This document shows positions 4,221-16,962 of a DNA stretch of 31,544 nt, piece after piece. Where the stretch lies: positions 1 to 31,544 of the forward strand of contig JADGRG010000153.1 in assembly GCA_017881145.1 (NCBI GenBank), written 5' to 3'. Under the pieces are notes generated by a model. The model had not been told where the DNA came from, made no database searches, and saw only the letters and a list, made by a program, of their open reading frames with translations. The translations under genes were made by a program, and so were the position numbers. Position 1 is the stretch's first letter. Every line of letters begins with the position of its first letter. This stretch comes from Sandaracinaceae bacterium (GTDB lineage: Bacteria > Myxococcota_A > Polyangia > Polyangiales > JAFGIB01).

Positions 4221-4763
4221 CTACTTCTTCACGTTCAGCCGGTTCACGGCGAAGCTCACATTGGCGTAGCCGGCCTGCGCTGCCGAGAACATCAGCTTCT
4301 TGATCACGCGATAGTCGATCGCAACGTCGGCCTGCAGGATGACCTGGCCGGGGAACGGCTCCTGCGGATGCAGGATGCTCCAGTTGCGCTTGAGCGTCTC
4401 GAGGTCTTGGATGAGCTGCTCGATGCGCTCCACTTTGGCGTCTGCCGCGAGCGTCGCGGTGTCCGCCATGCGGCGACCGTCCAGCGTCACGACCACCGCA
4501 TCCACTGCGATGACAGGGGAGACGCCGATGTCGACGACGTTTGCCGCCTTCGGCATCTTGAGGCTCGCCTTCTGAGCCAGCAGCTCGCCGCTCGCGCTGA
4601 ACGAGATCAGCAAGAAGACCACGAGCACGATCAGAAAGTCGATGAAGGGCACCAGAGGAATCGACACGTCGACCGATTTGGCGCCATGGCCGCTGACCTT
4701 CTTCGAGACGAACTTGAGCGGGACTTCCCGCAAGAGAACTTTGCCTGGCTGATTGATGGGCAT
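4221..4763 (-). CDS. aglS: ExbD/TolR-family motor subunit, AglS-like
   Basis: TM 'LVPFIDFLIVLVVFLLISFS' with Asp42. C-terminal 'VILQAD..IDYRVIKKLMFSAAQAGYANVSFAV' and N-terminal 'PGK...GHG.K' resemble recalled M. xanthus AglS (Asp41). Confidence 0.75.
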   Translation of the reverse strand: MPINQPGKVLLREVPLKFVSKKVSGHGAKSVDVSIPLVPFIDFLIVLVVFLLISFSASGELLAQKASLKMPKAANVVDIGVSPVIAVDAVVVTLDGRRMADTATLAADAKVERIEQLIQDLETLKRNWSILHPQEPFPGQVILQADVAIDYRVIKKLMFSAAQAGYANVSFAVNRLNVKK

Positions 4764-4778
4764 GAGATGCTCTTTTGC

Positions 4779-5252
4779 CTAGAGGGCCGAACCGTCCGAG
4801 AGCGACATATCCGAGAAGCCTTCACCGACGACCATGTCCATCGACGAGACCACGTCTTCGTAGCGAACACCATCTTCCGGCGCGACCACGAGATCCTTAC
4901 GGTTCGGCTCCAGGCGCTTGCGCTCCTGCAGCTTCTCGCGAAGGCCTTCCATGTCGTACTGGTCGCCGGACTTGGGGATCTCGATGCGATCACCCGCAGT
5001 CGATGAGATCACGAAGCCCGAGCCCGAGACCTGCAACACCAGCTTGATGTGCTCCTCGGGCGGCGGCTCGTTGGGCGCCGACTGACCAGGCTGCTGCTGG
5101 TTCGCGTTCAAGCGCGCCAGCTGGTTCCACACCGCCGTGACCAGCAGAAACATCACGCAGCAGAGCAGGAGATCGATGAAGGGGACCAGAGGTATCTCCG
5201 AGTCGACCGACTTCTTGCCGCCGTGGCCGCCACCTACGTTTATGCCACCCAT
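4779..5252 (-). CDS. aglQ: ExbD/TolR-family motor subunit, AglQ-like
   Basis: MGGINVGGGHGGKKSVDSEIPLVPFID (Asp27) closely resembles the recalled AglQ N-terminus with its essential Asp28. C-terminal 'PEDGVRYEDVV..MD' ExbD motif. Confidence 0.78.
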   Translation of the reverse strand: MGGINVGGGHGGKKSVDSEIPLVPFIDLLLCCVMFLLVTAVWNQLARLNANQQQPGQSAPNEPPPEEHIKLVLQVSGSGFVISSTAGDRIEIPKSGDQYDMEGLREKLQERKRLEPNRKDLVVAPEDGVRYEDVVSSMDMVVGEGFSDMSLSDGSAL

Positions 5253-5353
5253 CGTTGCGCCTCGTTACGTTGGAGCTGAAAACAGTTGCGAGGTTGGGGC
5301 CTGGGGTCGCGCGCGCTCACAGGACGAGCGGCCCCACAGCCTCGCTTCGCGAT

Positions 5354-6004
5354 TCAGACCGCCTGTGACTCGTCCAGATTGACCTTCGAGCGGTTGTTCA
5401 CCACCAGATTGACCACCTGCACGGTCGCGGAGTTGATGTCGTCGATTAGCTTCTGCGTCTTGGTGTTGTGCGCAGCGAAGCCGACCAGTGCGACGATGGC
5501 CGCGATCAGCCCGAAGGCCGTGCAGTTCATCGCTTCCGAAATGCCCTTCGCGAGCATCGTTGCTTTCGACGAAGCGTCGGCGTTGGCAACCGCGCCGAAG
5601 GCCGCGATCAGGCCCGTGACAGTTCCGAGCAGACCCGAGAGCATCGCGAGGTTCGCGAAGAGCGCGAGCAGCGGCGTACGGTGCTCGATCAGTGGCAGCT
5701 CGACCAGAGCGGCCTCATCCATCGCAGCCTGCACTTCGGCGTCGGGACGGTTCACCTTCATCAGGCCGGACTTGACGATGCGCGCGAGCGGCGCGTTGGC
5801 TGCTGAACAGAGTTTGATGGCGCGGCCGATGTCGCCGGCCAAGATGCACTTCTGCATCGTGGCGAGGAACACCTCGCGGTTGATCGAGCTCCGGTAGAGG
5901 TAGATCGCGCGTTCGACGATGATGCCGATCGAGAGGACCTGCCAGAACAAGATGGGGTACATGCCCCAGCCGCCTTCTTCGAAGTGATGCGCGAGCATTG
6001 ACAT
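5354..6004 (-). CDS. aglR: MotA/TolQ/ExbB proton-channel subunit, AglR-like
   Basis: Motifs 'WGMYPI', 'IIVER', 'GLLGTVTGLI', 'GISEAMNCTAFGL'. Strong SD GAGGAGGAG at 6012-6020 on the minus strand. First gene of a 1+2 cluster. Confidence 0.8.
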   Translation of the reverse strand: MSMLAHHFEEGGWGMYPILFWQVLSIGIIVERAIYLYRSSINREVFLATMQKCILAGDIGRAIKLCSAANAPLARIVKSGLMKVNRPDAEVQAAMDEAALVELPLIEHRTPLLALFANLAMLSGLLGTVTGLIAAFGAVANADASSKATMLAKGISEAMNCTAFGLIAAIVALVGFAAHNTKTQKLIDDINSATVQVVNLVVNNRSKVNLDESQAV

Positions 6005-6088
6005 ACCGTGTCTCCTCCTCAGGGCCGGCGATCGCGCCGGACTTCGTGTTGCGTTTGTGAGCGTTGTATCAGATCTGCCCAGCCCTGC

Positions 6089-6170
6089 GATCTAGCGCGA
6101 TCTAGCGATCTAGCCGATCCAGAATGGCGTCGGGCGAAGTCTTGGGGCGAACTCTCGGGGCGAACTCTCA
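6089..6170. repeat. Short tandem repeats upstream of aglR
   Basis: GATCTAGC at 6089, 6099 and 6107. 13-bp unit GGGCGAA(G/C)TCT(T/C)(G/A) at 6132, 6145 and 6158. Confidence 0.75.
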
Positions 6171-6186
6171 GGCTAGGACAGCGAAG

Positions 6187-6229
6187 TTAGTGATTCCACA
6201 GCTCTTTTTCGAACAATTTCAATCACTAA
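6187..6229. promoter_or_regulatory. 9-bp inverted repeat with 25-bp spacer in an AT-rich stretch (candidate protein-binding site)
   Basis: TTAGTGATT (6187-6195) and AATCACTAA (6221-6229) are exact reverse complements. Function is inferred only. Confidence 0.35.
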
Positions 6230-7023
6230 GTCGCGCCAAGTCGGACCATGGATCAAAAGTGAGTAGGCATCATATCGTCCGAACGTCCCATGTCAACTGC
6301 GATCTGCGCACATTTCTCACACCCGCTGAGGACGTATTTTTACATAGCGTCTTCCGGTGCCGCGGCCCTGGCCTCGCCCGCTGCAAATCGACACCGCCCA
6401 GCTCGCGAAGTTCCAAGCGGCGCCGTCCTTCCACTACTAGCGGACGCATGCGCTCGGGCACGCGCGCTCGGTCTGGCTGCTCGGCGGGTGCGGCGCCGCA
6501 CGCGCTGCGACCACGATCGCATTTGCTCCGCACACGCGCCGATGGGAGTGCGATAGTGGACAGCATCCGCCGCAGCGGAAGGCGCGTGCCCATTCGGAAA
6601 GCTTTCGACGCAGCGCTGAGCAGCGCGCGCAAGGCTGCTGCACCGCAACACCGACACGCACCTACGCGTGACTGGTACGACGGTCTGCGTCGCGTCGCGC
6701 GAGAGCTTGGTGTGTTCGTTGACAATCGTCGCAACGGTAAGATAGCGTTTGCCCCTCGACATTCGCCCACCGTCGTTTCATTCGACAAGCGCGATACGCG
6801 TCTGGCGTCTCGCGTCTCGCTCGATGGACACGCGACAAGCGACACGGACACGAACTCTTGAAACGATCGACGACGCCACCACTAGTAGATGGAAACCGTG
6901 TGGTTTCTGTAGCGACGCAATGGGAGTGTGCCGTATCCTCTCGTTGCGTCTTTTCGGAGTTTGCGACGGGGATCTTCTTAGGGGCGGTGCGGCCTCTCGG
7001 CGAATGAAAGGAGCCGCGATTTC

Positions 7024-7647
7024 ATGGAAAAGATTTGGGGCTTTCTGCGCGACGGCGCGCCGTTCTCGTTCATCAACGTCGCAATCTTAGCGTTCGTCAT
7101 CGCGATCATCGCGGACCGCTTCGTGCACATTCTCACGAAGCACCAGGTGAACGGCGAAGAGTTCATGGCGCAGATCCGTAAGCTGGTTCAGGCCGGCAAC
7201 ATCGATCGCGCGATCAAGCTCTGCGAAGCCGAGCCCTTGCCGCTTCTGCAGGTCGTCAAAGCGGGTCTCACCCAGGTGAACCGTGGCGAAGAGGCCATCA
7301 TCGCTCAAATGGATGAGCGCATGAGCGAAGTGGTGCCGCTGCTCGAAAAGCGCATCGGCGTGCTTTGGGCACTGGCCAATATCGCGACCCTGGTTGGTCT
7401 GCTCGGAACGATCTCCGGTCTGATCAAGTCGTTCGCCGCCGTGGCTTTCGCCGAGCCGGCGCAGAAGTCTGCCTTGCTGGCGCGCGGTATTTCGGAAGCC
7501 ATGTACAACACGGCGCTCGGCCTCGGCATCGCCGTGCTCTGCATGTTCTTCCACATGGTGCTGCACGGCTGGGCGAAGCGGATCAAGCATGACCTCGAGC
7601 GCACGCAGATGAAGCTCGAGAACCTGCTGACTCTGAAGCGCGAGTAG
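7024..7647 (+). CDS. MotA/TolQ/ExbB proton-channel subunit (AglR paralog)
   Basis: Motifs 'AGNIDRAIKLC', 'GLLGTISGLI', 'LARGISEAMYNTALGL'. SD AAAGGAG near 7005-7011. Confidence 0.92.
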   Translation: MEKIWGFLRDGAPFSFINVAILAFVIAIIADRFVHILTKHQVNGEEFMAQIRKLVQAGNIDRAIKLCEAEPLPLLQVVKAGLTQVNRGEEAIIAQMDERMSEVVPLLEKRIGVLWALANIATLVGLLGTISGLIKSFAAVAFAEPAQKSALLARGISEAMYNTALGLGIAVLCMFFHMVLHGWAKRIKHDLERTQMKLENLLTLKRE

Positions 7648-7720
7648 TTGGCGAGGAGCTCCATTCGCTCACCCATAGGTCCGGCCCTCAGGTCGGGAAA
7701 AAGCCACGGGATAAGCACGG

Positions 7721-8275
7721 ATGCCTAAGTTCACGCCAAGACAGCGCAACTTCATACGCAAGCACGGTAAGCCCCCTCAGCTCGATCCTTCCGAGGCGGT
7801 GGGCGAGCTGAACATCGTGCCGTTTCTCGACATCGTCATGAACTTGATCATGTTCTTGCTCGCGACGAGCGAGGCTGTGCTCTTGATCTCGCAGATCGAG
7901 TCCGACCTGCCGAAGATCGCGCGCGGACGCAGCCACGGTGCCGATGTCGCGACGCCGCTCAACCTCAACGTGACCATCACGGAAGTGGGCGTCATCGTCA
8001 GCGGTTCGGGTGGCAAGCTCGCGCCCGGCTGCACGACCGTCGACATGGGCCGCACGATCACGGTGCCCAAGAAAGCCAAGGACTACGACTGGCCCGGCCT
8101 CACGGAATGCGTGTCGCGGATCAAGCAGCAGTTCAAGGACGAGAACTCGGTCACGGTCAGCGCCGACCCGCAGGTGCAATATGAGCACATCGTGGCGGCG
8201 ATGGATGCGGTGCGCATCGGCAAGACCAAGCAGGAGCTCTTTCCGCAAGTATTGATCTCGGTGGGCGTGCGTTAG
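7721..8275 (+). CDS. ExbD/TolR-family subunit (second motor cluster)
   Basis: TM 'ELNIVPFLDIVMNLIMFLL' with Asp37. C-terminal 'SADPQVQYEHIVAAMDAVR'. Two periplasmic Cys. Confidence 0.9.
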   Translation: MPKFTPRQRNFIRKHGKPPQLDPSEAVGELNIVPFLDIVMNLIMFLLATSEAVLLISQIESDLPKIARGRSHGADVATPLNLNVTITEVGVIVSGSGGKLAPGCTTVDMGRTITVPKKAKDYDWPGLTECVSRIKQQFKDENSVTVSADPQVQYEHIVAAMDAVRIGKTKQELFPQVLISVGVR

Positions 8276-8332
8276 GGCTTATTTTGCTGGGCTCTGGCGT
8301 GGCCGGAGCACGGATGGGAATGCGGTCTCTCC

Positions 8333-8905
8333 ATGGCAGAGCAAGACAACGAACGGCCAGCGACTCTCGGTGACTGCAAGCGCAAAGTGCGTCGCTTGCT
8401 GGGGAAGCACCAAGAGGAAGAGGAAGTCGGCCTCAACATCTATCCGATGATGGATATGATGACGATCCTGCTCGTCTTCTTGATCCAGAGCTTTGCCTCG
8501 GGCGCGGCTGCGGTCGTGCAGTCCGAGGAGCTGCAGATTCCTGTCTCGACCTCGCAGGTGGATGCGTCCGAAGCGCTTGCGCTGGTCATTTCTTCCAGCG
8601 AGGTGTCGGTCGAGGGCAAGCACGTGCTCTCACTGCGCAACGGCAAGGTCGATTCGAGCTTGAAGCAGGGCGGAGGCAACGGCTGGCTGATCACGCCGCT
8701 CTTCAACGCGCTGAAGCAGCACCGTGATCGCCTGAAGCTGATTGCCGCCCAGAACACCAAGCGGCCGTTCCGTGGCGAGGTTCGCATCATCGCCGACAAA
8801 CGAACGCCGTTCCGTTCTCTGGGCGAGGTGATCTACACGCTCGGCCAGTCGGAATTCGGCTCGCTACGGTTCATCGTACTGAAGCAAGAAGGCCACAAGG
8901 GCTAA
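8333..8905 (+). CDS. ExbD/TolR-family subunit (second motor cluster)
   Basis: TM 'LNIYPMMDMMTILLVFLI' with Asp41. C-terminal 'IIADKRTPFRSLGEVIYT'. Confidence 0.9.
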   Translation: MAEQDNERPATLGDCKRKVRRLLGKHQEEEEVGLNIYPMMDMMTILLVFLIQSFASGAAAVVQSEELQIPVSTSQVDASEALALVISSSEVSVEGKHVLSLRNGKVDSSLKQGGGNGWLITPLFNALKQHRDRLKLIAAQNTKRPFRGEVRIIADKRTPFRSLGEVIYTLGQSEFGSLRFIVLKQEGHKG

Positions 8906-9111: not shown

Positions 9112-11457
9112 TCACTGCGACGCGGCAGAGCGGCGTGCGAAGGCGATGCGCTGCAGCCAGTCGCTGGCTTCGGCGGCGTGCCCGGCGTGCCCGTCCTGCG
9201 CTAGAGCGCTGAAGGCTTCTGCGGAGCTCGCGAGCTCGCCTTGCGCAAAGTGGGAGATGCCGAGCAAACGTAGCGCCTCTGCACTTAGCTCTGGCGTCGG
9301 CAAGCCGCGCGCGCGAGCTTGGGCCAGCAGGTCGCTGGCCATCCCGAAGCGTCGTTGGAAGTAGAGCTGGCGCGCCTCCAGGTAGTGCGGCAACCCGTCG
9401 CTGCGCTCGGCTCGCAGCTCGCGCGCCAGATGAACGGCCGTGGCCCCGTCGGCTCGCTCGCCGTTGTCGCCGACCAGAAGCTCGAAGATCAGCTGGGCCT
9501 GACGAGCGCCGCCTTCCAAGCCGAGCAGCTTCACCTGCAGCAGTCGCAGCGTGTCGTCCTCGCTTGGCCGGCCCAGGAGCCGCTGATAGGCGCTCTTGGC
9601 AGTCGCCAGATCGCCGCGTCGGAACGCTTCGTCGGCGAGGCTCTGGCGAGCGAGCGCGATGATGGAGTCTGGGGCGCGCCTCGGACCCTCCAGCTCTGCC
9701 AGCTCTGCGTGGGCGCGCCCTTGCTCTCCGATGCGAGCCAGCACCGAAACCAGGATCGCGCGCGTGCTGGCATCCGAGCCGTCGACGTCCAGAATCTGGA
9801 TGCACTCGCGCTGGGCGGCCGGGTCGTCGCCAGCAGCGAGATCACTTCCCAGGGACTCGCGCAGCTTGGCAAGCGCGTGCGGACACACCTCCGAGAAGAT
9901 GCTGCTGCCAGCGAAGCGAGCCCGGGCGAGCGCCAGCGCCGAAGCGGGCAGCGGCACTCGACGAAGATAGGCATGCCACTTCTGCTCCAGCTCGTTGAGG
10001 GGCACGGAAATCGCGCGTGAGAGGTCGTCGCTTTGGTAGGCGCGCCGCACGGCGGCGCTTCCGTAGCGCTCGTCGACGAAGCGCAAGAGTGAGCCGCTGA
10101 GCGTGTAGGCCATGCCTCGCTCCTGGCCGAGAAAGCCCGCGCCCAGGAGCGCAGACAGTCGCGGTGCCATGCCGAGATCGAGCATGGCGCGCGCCCACTG
10201 ATGAGGCGTGAGCCCGCCCTGCGGCTGCCACGCGGCTGCGACCGCCACGCCCTCGATCAGCGCAGGGTCCGGCCAGAGGCCGCCGTTAGCTGCAGCCACG
10301 CGCAGCGGTCCGCGTCCAGCCCCGCGCGCCACGACGTGCACCAGCTCGTGGCCGAGCACGGGGTTGGGCCAGCCTGGCTCGCTCACATAGGCTTCCGAGC
10401 GCCAGGGTTTGGCGATGTTGGTCCCGGCCGCACCCATCAGCGCGGCTTTCTCGGCGTGTGAACGAAAGAAGAAGACCGAGATGCGGCCCGGATGCGTGAG
10501 GCCCAGCCAGTGCTCGGCTTGCCAGGTGCGAAAGTCACATTCCTCGCCCAGCCTCCGCGCCGTGCGCCGCTGCAGCTCCCGTGGAAAATACAGGTGACAG
10601 CGCGCGCTCAGCAGCTCTCCGCCGAGGCCCTCGCGGATCATCGCAACGCTGCTGGCGTGGCCGAGCTGTGGCGCGAAGATCTCGGCCGTGAATGCGCCAG
10701 CCAGGCAGAGCAGCGCGACCACGAACGCGGAGCGTCGCCCCTGCCGCGGACGAAACGACAAGCGCAGCCTGCTGGGATCGCCCGTGCTGACCACCAGCAA
10801 CGCCAGGCCTGCGATGAAGGCGCTGGTCGCGACGCGCAGCGACACAAACGCCGTGGTGATCGCGACCCCTTCGTCGTAGAGCGTGCCGGCGAAGTAGCCG
10901 AAGTAGTGACCGTAGGCGAAGATGGCTGGCGTCGCGTAGAAGCGAGACGCGCCCAGGAGCATCTCGCCGACGGGCAGGCCAAACGCGAGCCAACCCGCAA
11001 GGCGCGGCCTGGCTACCAGCATCCCGCATATGACGCCGGTCATGCTGCCGAGCAATACGCCGAACCCGGGGCCGAGGAGCATGAAGAGCAGACCGGTGAG
11101 CGGCGTGCAGTTGCGCACGCGCAGAGCGTCGAGCCAGAGCAAGACACAGGGCAGCACGAAGAGCGAGAGCGCGTGGCCCAGCGCTGCGTCGAGCACTTGG
11201 GTCACGCTGGAAGAGTCGCCCCGTTGGCGCGCGTGGCTGGTCAGTTGTGCTGCGACCAGTGCAGCCATTGGCGGCAAGAGCATTCCGAGGCAGAGGGCGC
11301 TCTCGGGGCCCTGCACGCCCAAGAGAGGCACCGCACACAAGCCAAGTGTCGCCGTCCCGGCTATCGCGAGCGAGACGCGTGCGCTCGGCACCGCAAACGA
11401 GCTGGCAAGCCAGCGGCGCAACGCGCCAGCGAACGAAGCACTCGGCGAAACCAGCAT
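9112..11457 (-). CDS. Polytopic membrane protein with HExxH gluzincin-like (peptidase MA-type) domain and C-terminal TPR-like helices
   Basis: About seven hydrophobic segments in the first ~270 aa. HELVH at 10336-10350, followed 28 residues later by the E of 'LIEGVAVA'. Ala/Leu-rich helical C-terminus. ATG overlaps the lon stop (TGATG). Confidence 0.75.
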   Translation of the reverse strand: MLVSPSASFAGALRRWLASSFAVPSARVSLAIAGTATLGLCAVPLLGVQGPESALCLGMLLPPMAALVAAQLTSHARQRGDSSSVTQVLDAALGHALSLFVLPCVLLWLDALRVRNCTPLTGLLFMLLGPGFGVLLGSMTGVICGMLVARPRLAGWLAFGLPVGEMLLGASRFYATPAIFAYGHYFGYFAGTLYDEGVAITTAFVSLRVATSAFIAGLALLVVSTGDPSRLRLSFRPRQGRRSAFVVALLCLAGAFTAEIFAPQLGHASSVAMIREGLGGELLSARCHLYFPRELQRRTARRLGEECDFRTWQAEHWLGLTHPGRISVFFFRSHAEKAALMGAAGTNIAKPWRSEAYVSEPGWPNPVLGHELVHVVARGAGRGPLRVAAANGGLWPDPALIEGVAVAAAWQPQGGLTPHQWARAMLDLGMAPRLSALLGAGFLGQERGMAYTLSGSLLRFVDERYGSAAVRRAYQSDDLSRAISVPLNELEQKWHAYLRRVPLPASALALARARFAGSSIFSEVCPHALAKLRESLGSDLAAGDDPAAQRECIQILDVDGSDASTRAILVSVLARIGEQGRAHAELAELEGPRRAPDSIIALARQSLADEAFRRGDLATAKSAYQRLLGRPSEDDTLRLLQVKLLGLEGGARQAQLIFELLVGDNGERADGATAVHLARELRAERSDGLPHYLEARQLYFQRRFGMASDLLAQARARGLPTPELSAEALRLLGISHFAQGELASSAEAFSALAQDGHAGHAAEASDWLQRIAFARRSAASQ

Positions 11458-13838
11458 CAGGCGTGCGCGGAAGAGAGTGCGGCCGGCGGCGGCTTGATTT
11501 CGAGCGGCTCGGTGAGCGCGATTTTCAAGACCTCGTCGACGCGTGAGATCAGGTGCACCGTGAGATCCTTGCGGATGCGTTCGGGCACCTCGTCGAGGTC
11601 AGGCGCGTTCTGCTTGGGGATCACCAGCACCTTGATACCCGCGCGGTGAGCCGCCAGGCACTTCTGCTTGAGTCCGTCGACACGGAGCACTTTGCCGCGC
11701 AGCGTAATCTCACCGGTGAGCGCCACATCGGGTCGTACCGGGATGGACCGGAGCATGGACACCAGCGAGAGGAAGATGGAGAGCCCGAGCGCCGGACCGT
11801 CCTTGGACATGCCCCCCTTGGGAAGATGGATGTGCAGGTCGATGCGATCGAGGAAGTCATCCTTGAGGCCGTAGGAGGACGCGCGGGCTCTCAGATACGA
11901 AAACGCCGCCTGGGCCGATTCCTTGAGCACTTCGCCCATCTTGCCGGTCAGATGCACCTCGCCCTTGCCGGGCATCTGCGTGCACTCGACCAGCATGATC
12001 TCGCCGCCGCCGGGCGTCCAACACAGCGTTGTAGCGATGCCGATCGCTGCCACCTTCTCTGCCACGTCGAGCTCGATCTTGGGTGGGCCGAGTAGTGTCT
12101 CGACGAGCTTGGGATCGGCATCGATGTGCGTGCTGTCGCCGCCTGCCACCCGCACCGCGACGGCGCGACAGAGCGCGGCCACCTGCTGCGCCAGCTTCCG
12201 AACGCCGGCTTCCGAGGTGTATTCGTTGACCAGCTTTTCGATCGCGGCGTCGCTGATCTCGAGGTGCTCGGGCGTCAGGCCGTGATCGGCGAGCTGTCGG
12301 GGAACCAGGAAGTCGCGTGCAATCGCCAGCTTGTCGTCGCGCGTGTAGCCGGGAATCTCGATGATCTCCATGCGATCGAGGAGCGGGCGCGGGATGGTGT
12401 CACGGCGATTGGCGGTGGCGATGAAGAGCACCTGCGAGAGATCCACCGGCACGTTCAGGTAGTGGTCCACGAACGCGTGGTTCTGTTCGGGGTCGAGCGC
12501 CTCGAGCAGCGCACTGGCCGGATCACCGCTGTAATCGGCGCTCATCTTGTCGACTTCGTCGAGCACGAAGACCGGGTTGCCGGCACCGGCTTTCTTGAGG
12601 CCGGCGACGATGCGACCCGGCAAGGCGCCCACGTAGGTGCGTCGGTGGCCGCGGATCTCGGCCTCGTCCTGCACACCGCCAAGCGCAATGCGCTGAAAAG
12701 CTCTGCCGGTGGCGCGGGCGATGGAGTGGCCGAGCGAAGTCTTGCCGACGCCCGGCGGACCGATGAAGCAGAGGATCGGGCTGCGCTTGTTGGTGCGGAG
12801 CTTACGAACCGCGATGTATTCGACGATGCGCTTCTTGGGCTCTTCCAGGCCGTGGTGATCTTCGTCGAGCACGCGCCGCACTTCGCTCACGTCGAGGCGG
12901 TCGGGCGTCTGCCGACTCCACGGCAGATCGGAGAGCCACTCCACGTAGTTGAACGCCACCTGATATTCGGCGCTGGCTGAGTTCATCGAGCTCATTCGCG
13001 AAAGCTCGCGCCGTCCGGCTCGGTCCGCCTCGGGGGGCGGGTTGGCTTTGCTCAGCCGCTCGCGCAGGTTGTCGAGCTCGTCGTCCTCGGTGCCGGCGTC
13101 GCCGAGCTCGCGGCGGATCGCGCGCAGCTGTTGTCGCAAGAGCAGCTCGCGCTGCGACTTGGACATCTCCTGCTCGACCATCGAGGCGACTTCTTGTTTG
13201 ACGCGGTGAATTTCGTGCTGGCGTTTGATCAGATCGAGCACCGCCTTGAGCCGCGCGCGCACATCCAGCGTTTCGATGATGCGCTGCTTCTTGTCGGTGG
13301 GGATGGGTAAGTGGGAAGCGACCAGATCGGCGAGCGCACCGGGGTCCTGCACGTTGTCGAGGACCACGCCCATCTCGCGCGGTGGCGAGGGCAGAGTGCG
13401 TGCCAAGTCGCGCGCGATCTCGCGCAGGTGCACGGTGAGAGCGTCGATCTCTTCGTCGCGCTGCAGGTGTTCAGCGAGGCGTTCCACGCGTGCACGCAGC
13501 CAGGGCTCGCGGCCCACCGGACGCACCACCCGCATGCGTGCGATACCCTGCAACACAACGCTGTAGTGGCCCGAGCTCAACCGAATCACTTTGAGCACGC
13601 GCGCCAGCGTCCCGAAGTTGTAGAGCCGCTCGAAGCCCGGGTCTTCCTCTTCGGCGTCGCGCTGCGCGAGCACGCCGATGGTCGGTCGCTCTTGGCCGAA
13701 CGCTTCCTCGATCAGCCGCACCGAGCGCGCACGACCGACGTTGACCGGCACCACCGATGCGGGGAAGAGCACCGAGTTACGAAGCGCGAGGATAGGCAAC
13801 GCATCGAGCGCGCTCTCCGGAATGATCGACTCAGCCAT
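11457..13838 (-). CDS. lon: Lon-family AAA+ protein (LonA type) with catalytic Ser replaced by Ala
   Basis: LON N-domain 'LPILALRNSVLFP', Walker A GPPGVGKTS, pore loop RRTYVGALPG, Walker B VLDEVDK, Arg finger PLLDRME. Protease domain reads KDGPALG where KDGPSAG is canonical. Confidence 0.95.
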   Translation of the reverse strand: MAESIIPESALDALPILALRNSVLFPASVVPVNVGRARSVRLIEEAFGQERPTIGVLAQRDAEEEDPGFERLYNFGTLARVLKVIRLSSGHYSVVLQGIARMRVVRPVGREPWLRARVERLAEHLQRDEEIDALTVHLREIARDLARTLPSPPREMGVVLDNVQDPGALADLVASHLPIPTDKKQRIIETLDVRARLKAVLDLIKRQHEIHRVKQEVASMVEQEMSKSQRELLLRQQLRAIRRELGDAGTEDDELDNLRERLSKANPPPEADRAGRRELSRMSSMNSASAEYQVAFNYVEWLSDLPWSRQTPDRLDVSEVRRVLDEDHHGLEEPKKRIVEYIAVRKLRTNKRSPILCFIGPPGVGKTSLGHSIARATGRAFQRIALGGVQDEAEIRGHRRTYVGALPGRIVAGLKKAGAGNPVFVLDEVDKMSADYSGDPASALLEALDPEQNHAFVDHYLNVPVDLSQVLFIATANRRDTIPRPLLDRMEIIEIPGYTRDDKLAIARDFLVPRQLADHGLTPEHLEISDAAIEKLVNEYTSEAGVRKLAQQVAALCRAVAVRVAGGDSTHIDADPKLVETLLGPPKIELDVAEKVAAIGIATTLCWTPGGGEIMLVECTQMPGKGEVHLTGKMGEVLKESAQAAFSYLRARASSYGLKDDFLDRIDLHIHLPKGGMSKDGPALGLSIFLSLVSMLRSIPVRPDVALTGEITLRGKVLRVDGLKQKCLAAHRAGIKVLVIPKQNAPDLDEVPERIRKDLTVHLISRVDEVLKIALTEPLEIKPPPAALSSAHA

Positions 13839-14271: not shown

Positions 14272-15378
14272 ATGTCGCCCGCGCGCCTCACTCCGGAAAC
14301 CGACAAGTCTTTCCGACGCCTTTCGGACTTTCGGCTCGCTGACCTCGAAGCGATCCGTCTGCTCTTGCGCGGCGGCTCGGTCATCGATTGGCACCGCATG
14401 AACTTCGCCTCCGAAGAGGAGGCCGTCGAGTTCATCGGTTCGCAGGATTTCGATCTGGACGATCAGCGCGACCTCGATCGCATCAGCGCGATTCGCGACG
14501 AAGCGATCGCGTTTCTGCGCCGGCACTTCGACTTCCCGGTGCCGCGTCCGGTCGCCGCGCTCGACCTGCCCGGGTTGCTCATGCTGGCCTCAGGCTCAGG
14601 TCACAGGCAGATGTGCGCCTGCGCGATTCTCAAGGCGATGCACATCGTGCACCACCTGGAAGGCCGAGAGCTGCTCTTCATGCTGCCCTTTTCCGACCAG
14701 GAGCTCTTCCACTTGGTCGAGGAGAAAGTCTATCGCGTGATGGGTGGCATGCTGGCCCACGGCTTTCCGATCCTGGAGTTCACTGGCGGGCGCAAGAACA
14801 AAGACTCGCTCTACCAGAAGCTGCTCTCCAAGTCGGATACCATCGCCGCCAACATCTACGACAAGCTGCGCTTCCGCATTGTGACGCACGCACCGGAAGA
14901 CGTCTTTCCGACGCTCAACTACATGCTGCGGCACATCTTCCCGTTCAACTACGTGATCCCGGGGCAGAGCACCAACACGCTCTTCCAGTTCAACTCCTAT
15001 TGCGAGCACGACCCGCACCTCTCCCTGCTGCTGCCGGAGATGCAGACCAAGCCCGATCAGGAAGACGCGCTCACGCGCATGGATAATCGCTTCAGCGCGC
15101 AGAGCTACTCCATCGTGCACTTCGTGGTCGATATGCCGTTGCGTGTGCCGCAAGAGATGCTCGACCGCGCGCCGCCGCAAGCGCGAACGCTGGGACCGGT
15201 CGTCTTCGTGCTCACCGAGTTCCAGATCCTCGACCGCGCTACCGAACAGCGCAATGAGCTCGGCGACGCGAGCCACGCCGCGTACAAAGAGCGTCAGAAG
15301 CGCGCCGTCATGCATCGGCTCAAGGTCGGCGAGGGTTTCGAGCCCGGCAACACCGCACCACCGCCGCGCAAGGGTTAA
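14272..15378 (+). CDS. TIGR04552-like protein with RelA/SpoT synthetase motifs (small alarmone synthetase-like)
   Basis: Motifs GRKNKDSLYQK, IYDKLRFRIV, YSIVH, EFQI and ELGDASHAAYKE line up in order with the RelA synthetase motifs. The family name is recalled, not searched. Confidence 0.7.
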   Translation: MSPARLTPETDKSFRRLSDFRLADLEAIRLLLRGGSVIDWHRMNFASEEEAVEFIGSQDFDLDDQRDLDRISAIRDEAIAFLRRHFDFPVPRPVAALDLPGLLMLASGSGHRQMCACAILKAMHIVHHLEGRELLFMLPFSDQELFHLVEEKVYRVMGGMLAHGFPILEFTGGRKNKDSLYQKLLSKSDTIAANIYDKLRFRIVTHAPEDVFPTLNYMLRHIFPFNYVIPGQSTNTLFQFNSYCEHDPHLSLLLPEMQTKPDQEDALTRMDNRFSAQSYSIVHFVVDMPLRVPQEMLDRAPPQARTLGPVVFVLTEFQILDRATEQRNELGDASHAAYKERQKRAVMHRLKVGEGFEPGNTAPPPRKG

Positions 15379-16413: not shown

Positions 16414-16962
16414 TCAGCGCTTCTTCAGCTGCTGCGTAAGCGTTTCCTTGCCGCGCTGCCAGTTGACGGCACAAAGCTCCCCGGTCTTGAAGCCGTCGAG
16501 CACGCGCAGAATCTCATCGACGTTGCGACCGACCGCGAGGTCGTTGGCTGACGCATAGCGCACGACGCCGTCGGGATCGGCGACGATGGTGGCGCGCAGT
16601 GCTACGCCGGCCGTGGGATGCACGATGCCCAGCGCCTGCGCGAGCGTCGGCGACACGAAGAGCAGCGGATGCTGCAGGTTCTTCAGGTCCGGATGCGACT
16701 TGCGCCACGCGAGGTGGGAGTGTTCGTTGTCGGTCGAGCCGCCGAGCACCACCGCGTCACGTTCCGCGAAGGCTGCCAGCTTGTTGTTGAAGTCGACGAT
16801 CTCGGTCGGACACACGAAGGTGAAGTCCTTGGGATACGTGTAGAGCACGATCCATTTGCCGGGGAAGTCCTTCGAGCTGATGTCAGCGAACTCTTTGCCG
16901 GCCTCGATGCTGACGCACGCGGTGGCTTTGAACTCCGGGAGCTTGGTGCCTGGGATGATCAT
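16414..16962 (-). CDS. ahpC: 2-Cys peroxiredoxin (AhpC)
   Basis: Peroxidatic motif YPKDFTFVCPTEI and resolving Cys in ELCAVNW. SD AGGAG at 16971-16975 on the minus strand. Confidence 0.95.
   Translation of the reverse strand: MIIPGTKLPEFKATACVSIEAGKEFADISSKDFPGKWIVLYTYPKDFTFVCPTEIVDFNNKLAAFAERDAVVLGGSTDNEHSHLAWRKSHPDLKNLQHPLLFVSPTLAQALGIVHPTAGVALRATIVADPDGVVRYASANDLAVGRNVDEILRVLDGFKTGELCAVNWQRGKETLTQQLKKR

Follow-up and report, generated by a model that had tools for sequence, protein, structure and literature searches.

A natural serine-to-alanine clade of LonA in the Polyangiales, probably of pseudoproteases, and its conserved pairing with a gene for a predicted membrane peptidase-like protein

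The window analysed here is a stretch of 31,544 nucleotides (contig JADGRG010000153.1 of assembly GCA_017881145.1, Sandaracinaceae bacterium) from a soil myxobacterium of the order Polyangiales, known from a metagenome-assembled genome (MAG). It carries an extra, otherwise intact lon gene in which an alanine codon stands at the position of the catalytic serine. We consider that the encoded protein is a natural Lon pseudoprotease, working as an AAA+ motor that unfolds or remodels proteins, with a function tied to the membrane protein P0002, the product of the adjoining downstream gene, and we place the probability of this reading at about 0.6. The argument draws on the residues of the active site, on the distribution of the substitution amongst related genomes, on the pattern of selection along the gene and on the conservation of the gene pair.

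The lon gene (P0001) occupies positions 11457–13838 of the minus strand and encodes 793 residues; translation of the open reading frame, Pfam, NCBIfam and matches to the PDB agree in assigning it to a LonA paralog. In Pfam the order of domains is that of an N-terminal substrate-binding domain (LON_substr_bdg, PF02190, residues 14–206, E = 8e-48), an AAA+ module (AAA, PF00004, residues 356–493), a lid (Lon_lid, PF22667, residues 518–568) and the Lon_C protease fold (PF05362, residues 576–776, E = 2e-74), the last of these covering profile positions 4–204 of 205. The NCBIfam model TIGR00763, 'endopeptidase La', scores 887.5 bits, above its curated whole-protein cut-off of 608, and the enterobacterial-type model NF008053 gives 714 bits, below its cut-off of 891. 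Solved LonA structures align with the protein from end to end with E values of 1e-205 to 1e-221, the last for the Thermus thermophilus enzyme (PDB entry 7p6u). By homology, then, the protein is a LonA, of MEROPS family S16, subfamily A, and by the MEROPS criterion Ala683 makes it a predicted non-peptidase homologue.

Residue equivalences were taken from an alignment of the protein with E. coli Lon (Ec) from NC_000913.3; all codons cited for this gene and its partner lie on the minus strand. The position of the catalytic serine, EcS679, is occupied by Ala683 (codon GCG, 11790–11792) within the motif KDGPALG, the first residue of which is 679. The catalytic lysine, EcK722, corresponds to Lys726 (codon AAG, 11661–11663), 43 residues further along. 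Pro682, which precedes the nucleophile position, is retained, as is Thr708 (EcT704; 11715–11717), a position that elsewhere in the clade holds Leu, Ser, Met, Ile or Ala. Leu684 takes the place of EcA680, and RVDG (residues 719–722; 11673–11684) replaces the canonical P[IV]GG segment, EcP715–G718, which reads PIGG in E. coli; Arg719 aligns with EcP715, Asp721 with EcG717 and Gly722 with EcG718. Directly after Lys726 is a clade-specific cysteine, Cys727 (11658–11660), where other LonAs have Leu, Val or Ala.

The motor displays no such changes. Walker A reads GPPGVGKT (residues 360–367, with Lys366 as EcK362; 12738–12761), the Walker B acidic pair is Asp427 and Glu428 (EcD423 and EcE424; 12555–12560), the pore loop holds Tyr402 (EcY398; 12633–12635) and the arginine finger is Arg489 (EcR484; 12372–12374). 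The sensor-1 residue Asn477 (EcN473) and the sensor-2 residue Arg547 (EcR542) are also present. Amongst 120 relatives Walker A, Walker B, the YVG motif of the pore loop and the arginine finger are invariant or nearly so. A sequence-only reading of the window had reported the alanine codon, the lysine at its proper spacing, the changes from SAG to ALG and from PIGG to RVDG, and the preserved ATPase motifs, and the translation and the alignment with E. coli Lon bear these observations out. It had also put forward Ser678 as an alternative nucleophile. We reject that candidate because the position is not conserved, being proline in 75 of 79 Ala-bearing relatives.

The window corresponds to contig C610 of its MAG, which comprises 749 contigs, is 86% complete with 4.9% contamination and has a G+C content of 65%. 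The same MAG contains at least three further LonA genes, giving at least four in all, and the focal protein is 43–53% identical to the other paralogs. A full-length LonA at C678:469–3036 (43% identical to the focal protein) and a C-terminal piece at a contig end, C738:3066–3950 (51% identical), both have the motif KDGPSAG. The third, C689:4272–6455, is stopped by the end of its contig just before the nucleophile site; it belongs to a paralog clade in which some 50 residues are inserted immediately before Walker A.

A maximum-likelihood tree of 73 LonAs from 40 related genomes resolves at least five paralog clades and places the focal copy in a Polyangiales-specific one. This clade of 30 rows (support 99 in the SH-like approximate likelihood-ratio test, SH-aLRT) is sister to that holding the genome's own paralog C738. 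Orthologs in these genomes are 84–86% identical to the focal protein within the genus, 65–76% within the family and 54–66% within the order. Amongst the 43 non-focal rows KDGPSAG is present in all 42 that reach the site, the remaining row being C689, and P[IV]GG is likewise found except in L070 (AIGG) and L068 (GVGG). Within the focal clade the basal members have a canonical site and the derived ones have Ser, Ala or Gly as the nucleophile residue.

Alanine at residue 683 proves to be common amongst orthologs. Counting the window itself, 14 rows belong to the family, and 13 of them have it; so do four of five genomes of the same genus, which share the synteny of the window. The one family-level row without it, L010, carries the serine codon TCG, as against GCG in its sister L008, and has Leu at EcT704; its serine looks like a recent switch back within an already degenerate site. 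Sampling more widely, 148 members of the clade divide into 79 with Ala, 67 with Ser and two with Gly, and a tree of these members built without that column requires at least 17 changes of state at the position. The nearest 120 clusters at 90% identity comprise 64 with Ala and 56 with Ser, all of them with the lysine and the ATPase motifs, and they bear the public names 'endopeptidase La' or 'ATP-dependent Lon protease'. When genomes were located instead by way of the downstream gene P0002 and the best 80 matches taken as species representatives, the 71 with Lon upstream of the P0002 ortholog gave 44 with Ala and Lys, 25 with Ser and Lys and two with Ser and Arg.

The 50%-identity representative library collapsed the focal clade and shows no Ala-bearing member of it, and it was used only as a background for LonA. 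In this background of 148 diverse representatives 146 have Ser and Lys, two have Ser and Arg, and none lacks the serine. A further 77 LonA loci from other phyla all have Ser, which brings the controls to 225 of 225. Ala683 is therefore far from a chance variant, and its presence in independently assembled orthologs means that it is not an error of reading or assembly, as the sequence-only reading had argued from the altered neighbouring positions. A second, independent route to disabling the dyad is seen in four focal-clade relatives (L029, L260, L264 and P0005), in which Ser is kept and Arg replaces the catalytic Lys.

Decay extends beyond the nucleophile. In other LonAs 53 columns of the protease domain and 100 of the AAA+ module are conserved at 95% or more; the clade has lost 12 of the former and six of the latter. 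The lost protease-domain columns include EcG600, S679, A680, T686, M703, T704, P715 and G717; within the clade EcG717 becomes Asp, Glu or Ser, EcP715 becomes Arg or Lys, and EcA680 becomes Leu or Met. The full canonical set of A680, T704, G717, G718, K722 and P678 occurs in none of the 79 Ala-bearing members and in 26 of the 67 that bear Ser. The clade thus forms a graded series, in which the site is canonical at one end, degenerate but still with Ser in the middle, and with Ala at the other end. Some residues of the site persist throughout. Lysine is present at the catalytic position in 147 of the 148 members, Asp680 is present in 75 of 79 Ala-bearing members, and Cys727 occurs in 77 of these 79 and in 41 of the 67 Ser-bearing members.

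Selection on the separate domains was estimated as the ratio of nonsynonymous to synonymous divergence (dN/dS) by the Nei–Gojobori method (NG86) amongst the five genomes of the same genus. The values are rough because dS is high (0.6–1.3), and we make use only of the contrast with paralogs from the same genomes. For the focal gene dN/dS is 0.07 in the N domain, 0.095 in the AAA+ module and 0.19 in the protease domain. The corresponding values are 0.03, 0.065 and 0.06 for the Ser-bearing paralog B, and 0.05, 0.075 and 0.07 for the Ser-bearing paralog C. In the protease domain dN itself is 0.17 for the focal gene compared with about 0.04 for the paralogs, and over the whole gene dN/dS is about 0.11. 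The protease domain is approximately threefold relaxed yet clearly under purifying selection, and the gene is not decaying. Such constraint would be expected of a domain retained for its structural part in the ring. Measured against divergence in the AAA+ module, divergence in the protease domain has a ratio of about 1.6 in each of the three subgroups (Ala, degenerate Ser and canonical Ser), compared with 1.07 in paralog B. Since the canonical members share the raised ratio, the relaxation is clade-wide and older than the loss of the serine.

The downstream gene, P0002 (9112–11457), encodes 781 residues, and its start overlaps the end of lon, the TGA of the one and the ATG of the other sharing a single base in TGATG. 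Of 30 relatives that have the focal Lon, about 27 carry a P0002 ortholog as the next gene downstream. Conversely, amongst the 80 species representatives that carry P0002, 71 have a Lon gene as the immediate upstream neighbour on the same strand. All of these best 80 genome matches are MAGs, and no cultured, named species with the module is found amongst them. Three P0002 homologs, L205, L206 and L220, from Sandaracinus or Sandaracinaceae MAGs, depart from the pairing in that the 3 kb upstream flank is without a Lon protease domain.

P0002 is predicted to consist of seven transmembrane (TM) helices followed by a gluzincin-like peptidase domain of the MA clan and tetratricopeptide (TPR) repeats. 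The AlphaFold2 model, with a mean confidence (pLDDT) of 90.6, presents seven TM helices, a mixed α/β domain and a long domain of helical repeats. Pfam gives only a weak TPR match, with no peptidase match at E ≤ 0.001. Foldseek comparison with the AlphaFold database returns entries named 'Peptidase MA-like domain' and 'Tetratricopeptide repeat protein', and comparison with the PDB returns weak matches to M9 collagenase, M1 aminopeptidase and TPR proteins. The HExxH motif, HELVH at residues 370–374 (10336–10350), is invariant in 28 of 28 orthologs, and so is the motif EGxAVA, in which Glu402 (10252–10254) is the putative third zinc ligand.

The topology of P0002 bears directly on how the pair might function. 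Lysine and arginine residues in the loops number 8.3 on the side of the N-terminus and 2.0 on the opposite side. Five cysteines are invariant across 20 orthologs: Cys117, in a loop predicted to lie outside, and Cys287, Cys307, Cys525 and Cys552 in the soluble domain, which would fit disulfides in a periplasmic domain. On the basis of the seven modelled helices, the charge asymmetry and these cysteines, we predict an N-in topology with the peptidase and TPR domain in the periplasm. Envelope proteases of the BepA type likewise combine a zinc HExxH metallopeptidase with TPR in the periplasm, a likeness that we draw by description. P0002 differs from BepA in its seven-TM anchor and in an MA-like rather than an M48 fold.

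How might a Lon that does not cut be of use? In E. coli the S679A mutant of Lon is still an active ATPase and still binds substrates, which it sequesters, and proteolytically inactive Pim1 of yeast still supports the assembly of membrane complexes. By analogy the focal Lon should still bind, unfold or remodel proteins. We propose that canonical Ser–Lys proteolysis has been lost and that the AAA+ motor, the N domain and the protease-fold domain have been retained, the last probably as a scaffold for the ring. Proteins would be bound and then unfolded, translocated or remodelled at the expense of ATP, uncut. This function would be tied to the co-transcribed seven-TM P0002, for example to its cytoplasmic parts, its assembly or its clients, and ordinary Lon proteolysis would be left to the Ser-bearing LonA paralogs of the same genome. 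The sequence-only reading had arrived at a pseudoprotease, and this part gains support from a nucleophile-less Lon across a clade, an intact ATPase, decay of the site, relaxed but purifying selection and the coexistence of Ser-bearing paralogs. As to the roles that it put forward, those of unfoldase, substrate trap or regulator of other Lons, the best clue is the conservation of the operon with a membrane MA-peptidase/TPR protein, which suggests a dedicated membrane-linked role and not the general regulation of other Lons.

Several observations weigh against a membrane-linked unfoldase that has simply given up proteolysis. The peptidase domain of P0002 is predicted to be across the membrane from Lon, which is therefore unlikely simply to pass unfolded chains on to it. 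Relaxation of the protease domain preceded the loss of the serine, and so does not merely follow from that loss. The near-universal Lys726, the frequent Asp680 and an adjacent cysteine that is almost fixed are unexpected for a site wholly without function. Serine returns in some lineages, as in L010 beside L008; Ser and Ala may thus be nearly neutral alternatives for some other reason, or activity may be lost and restored by turns. Finally, more than a third of the Ser-bearing members (26 of 67) possess a canonical site, and the clade is therefore not uniformly inactive.

Other explanations have to be considered against the same evidence. The focal Lon may be a substrate trap or a regulator, sequestering Lon substrates or entering mixed hexamers with Ser-bearing Lons and damping their activity. 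The additional LonA genes of the MAG, the intact N domain and ATPase and the behaviour of E. coli S679A would all suit such a role; nevertheless, identity to the other paralogs is a mere 43–53%, and a tight, widely conserved operon with a membrane protein suggests a dedicated task. We judge a trap or regulator unlikely. More ambitiously, the two genes might encode a single machine that spans the membrane, in which the serine-less Lon, docked on the seven-TM P0002, supplies the ATP-driven motor on the cytoplasmic side. Membrane or envelope proteins would be extracted, dislocated or remodelled by the power of this motor and recognized or cut by the periplasmic zinc peptidase and TPR part, and the motor's own protease would be dispensable and repeatedly lost. 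Such a machine would be the bacterial counterpart of the dislocation driven by Cdc48, or else an FtsH that is both split and inverted in its topology; we offer it as speculation, with somewhat lower expectation. A more literal division of FtsH, in which the Lon motor feeds unfolded substrates to the zinc peptidase of P0002 and can dispense with its own serine, would make sense of the overlapping stop and start codons, the conserved pairing, the invariant HExxH…E and the repeated loss of Ser in the clade. We consider it improbable because the helices, the loop charges (8.3 against 2.0) and the five cysteines put the peptidase and TPR domain of P0002 on the periplasmic side of the membrane and Lon would be in the cytoplasm; members with a canonical Ser site, moreover, show the pairing too.

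It might be argued instead that the enzyme is still a peptidase, employing another nucleophile such as Cys727 beside Lys726, or a water molecule activated by the lysine. The conservation of Lys726 and Asp680 fits this idea, as does a cysteine that is present in nearly all Ala-bearing members and not in other LonA paralogs. However, the surrounding positions EcG717, EcP715 and EcA680 have been lost as well, dN in the protease domain is about four times that of the sister paralogs, and Cys727 is not tied to the loss of Ser, since 41 of the 67 members that bear Ser have it too. Ser678, as noted, is not conserved. Residual or alternative chemistry, which the kept lysine, the near-fixed cysteine and the returns of serine bring to mind, retains a small probability. 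That the alanine is an artefact, whether from sequencing, assembly or contamination of the MAG, or the mark of a decaying pseudogene, might be suspected from a fragmented genome of 749 contigs with 4.9% contamination. The open reading frame of 793 residues is intact, however, whole-gene dN/dS is low, and five genomes of the same genus hold orthologs at 83–86% identity in the same synteny, four of the five with Ala. Shared alanine and purifying selection effectively refute this explanation, to which we assign a negligible probability.

Comparison with known systems helps to define what is distinctive. Canonical LonAs, such as those of E. coli, T. thermophilus (7p6u) and Meiothermus taiwanensis (7fd4), have the same domain order, ATPase motifs and catalytic lysine. 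The focal protein differs from them in the change of Ser to Ala, in the replacement of EcA680, EcP715 and EcG717, in a protease domain that evolves three to four times faster than in sister paralogs, and in the conserved pairing of its gene, in one operon, with that of a membrane MA-peptidase/TPR protein. Engineered protease-dead Lons carry the same nucleophile exchange (E. coli S679A; M. taiwanensis 7ypj, which reads KDGPAAG), whereas the change described here arose naturally, has become fixed in many species and is accompanied by further alterations of the active site.

Losses of a comparable kind are on record in other AAA+ proteases. The chloroplast FtsHi proteins of plants are pseudo-proteases of an AAA+ protease family (PMC8197885). 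Like the focal Lon, FtsHi and the inactive ClpR/ClpP subunits have lost catalytic residues and kept non-proteolytic work, but they belong to families M41 and S14 and are eukaryotic-organelle or cyanobacterial proteins; FtsHi, in addition, bears its own membrane anchor, whereas the membrane protein of the focal Lon is the product of a separate gene. LonC (MEROPS S16.007; the M. taiwanensis Lon-like protease, 4fw9) lacks essential ATPase residues and keeps the protease (PMC9569914). It too has naturally lost one of two activities, and is the mirror image of the focal Lon, which keeps the ATPase and loses the protease nucleophile. MEROPS family S16 is stated in general terms to include non-peptidase homologues (PMC9569914). 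Beyond this general remark, our literature search turned up no description of a LonA clade in which Ser has naturally given way to Ala, nor of its operon partner.

Lon is the textbook fusion of ATPase and protease in one chain, and forms of it without protease activity are familiar chiefly as mutants made in the laboratory. Here a species-rich natural clade has lost the nucleophile, and sometimes regained it, with the motor intact and the membrane partner kept. It provides a ready-made system in which to study what a non-cutting Lon may do as chaperone, unfoldase or trap, and its graded passage from canonical through degenerate Ser to Ala is useful for the study of how pseudoenzymes originate. 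Databases say 'endopeptidase La' although about half of the proteins of the clade cannot use the canonical mechanism.

The remainder of the window provides some minor observations. Two gene sets of the ExbB/ExbD/ExbD type (Pfam MotA_ExbB and ExbD) lie at 4221–8905, one of them convergent with the lon–P0002 pair, and a Sandaracinaceae MAG, L164, has the same arrangement of Lon, its partner and then convergent ExbD–ExbD–ExbB. Divergent from lon, on the plus strand at 14272–15378, is a gene for a protein of 368 residues with a weak match to RelA_SpoT (E = 1.2e-4, 22.8 bits, below the cut-off of 27). An ordinary AhpC/TSA peroxiredoxin gene (E = 2e-27) is located on the minus strand at 16414–16962.

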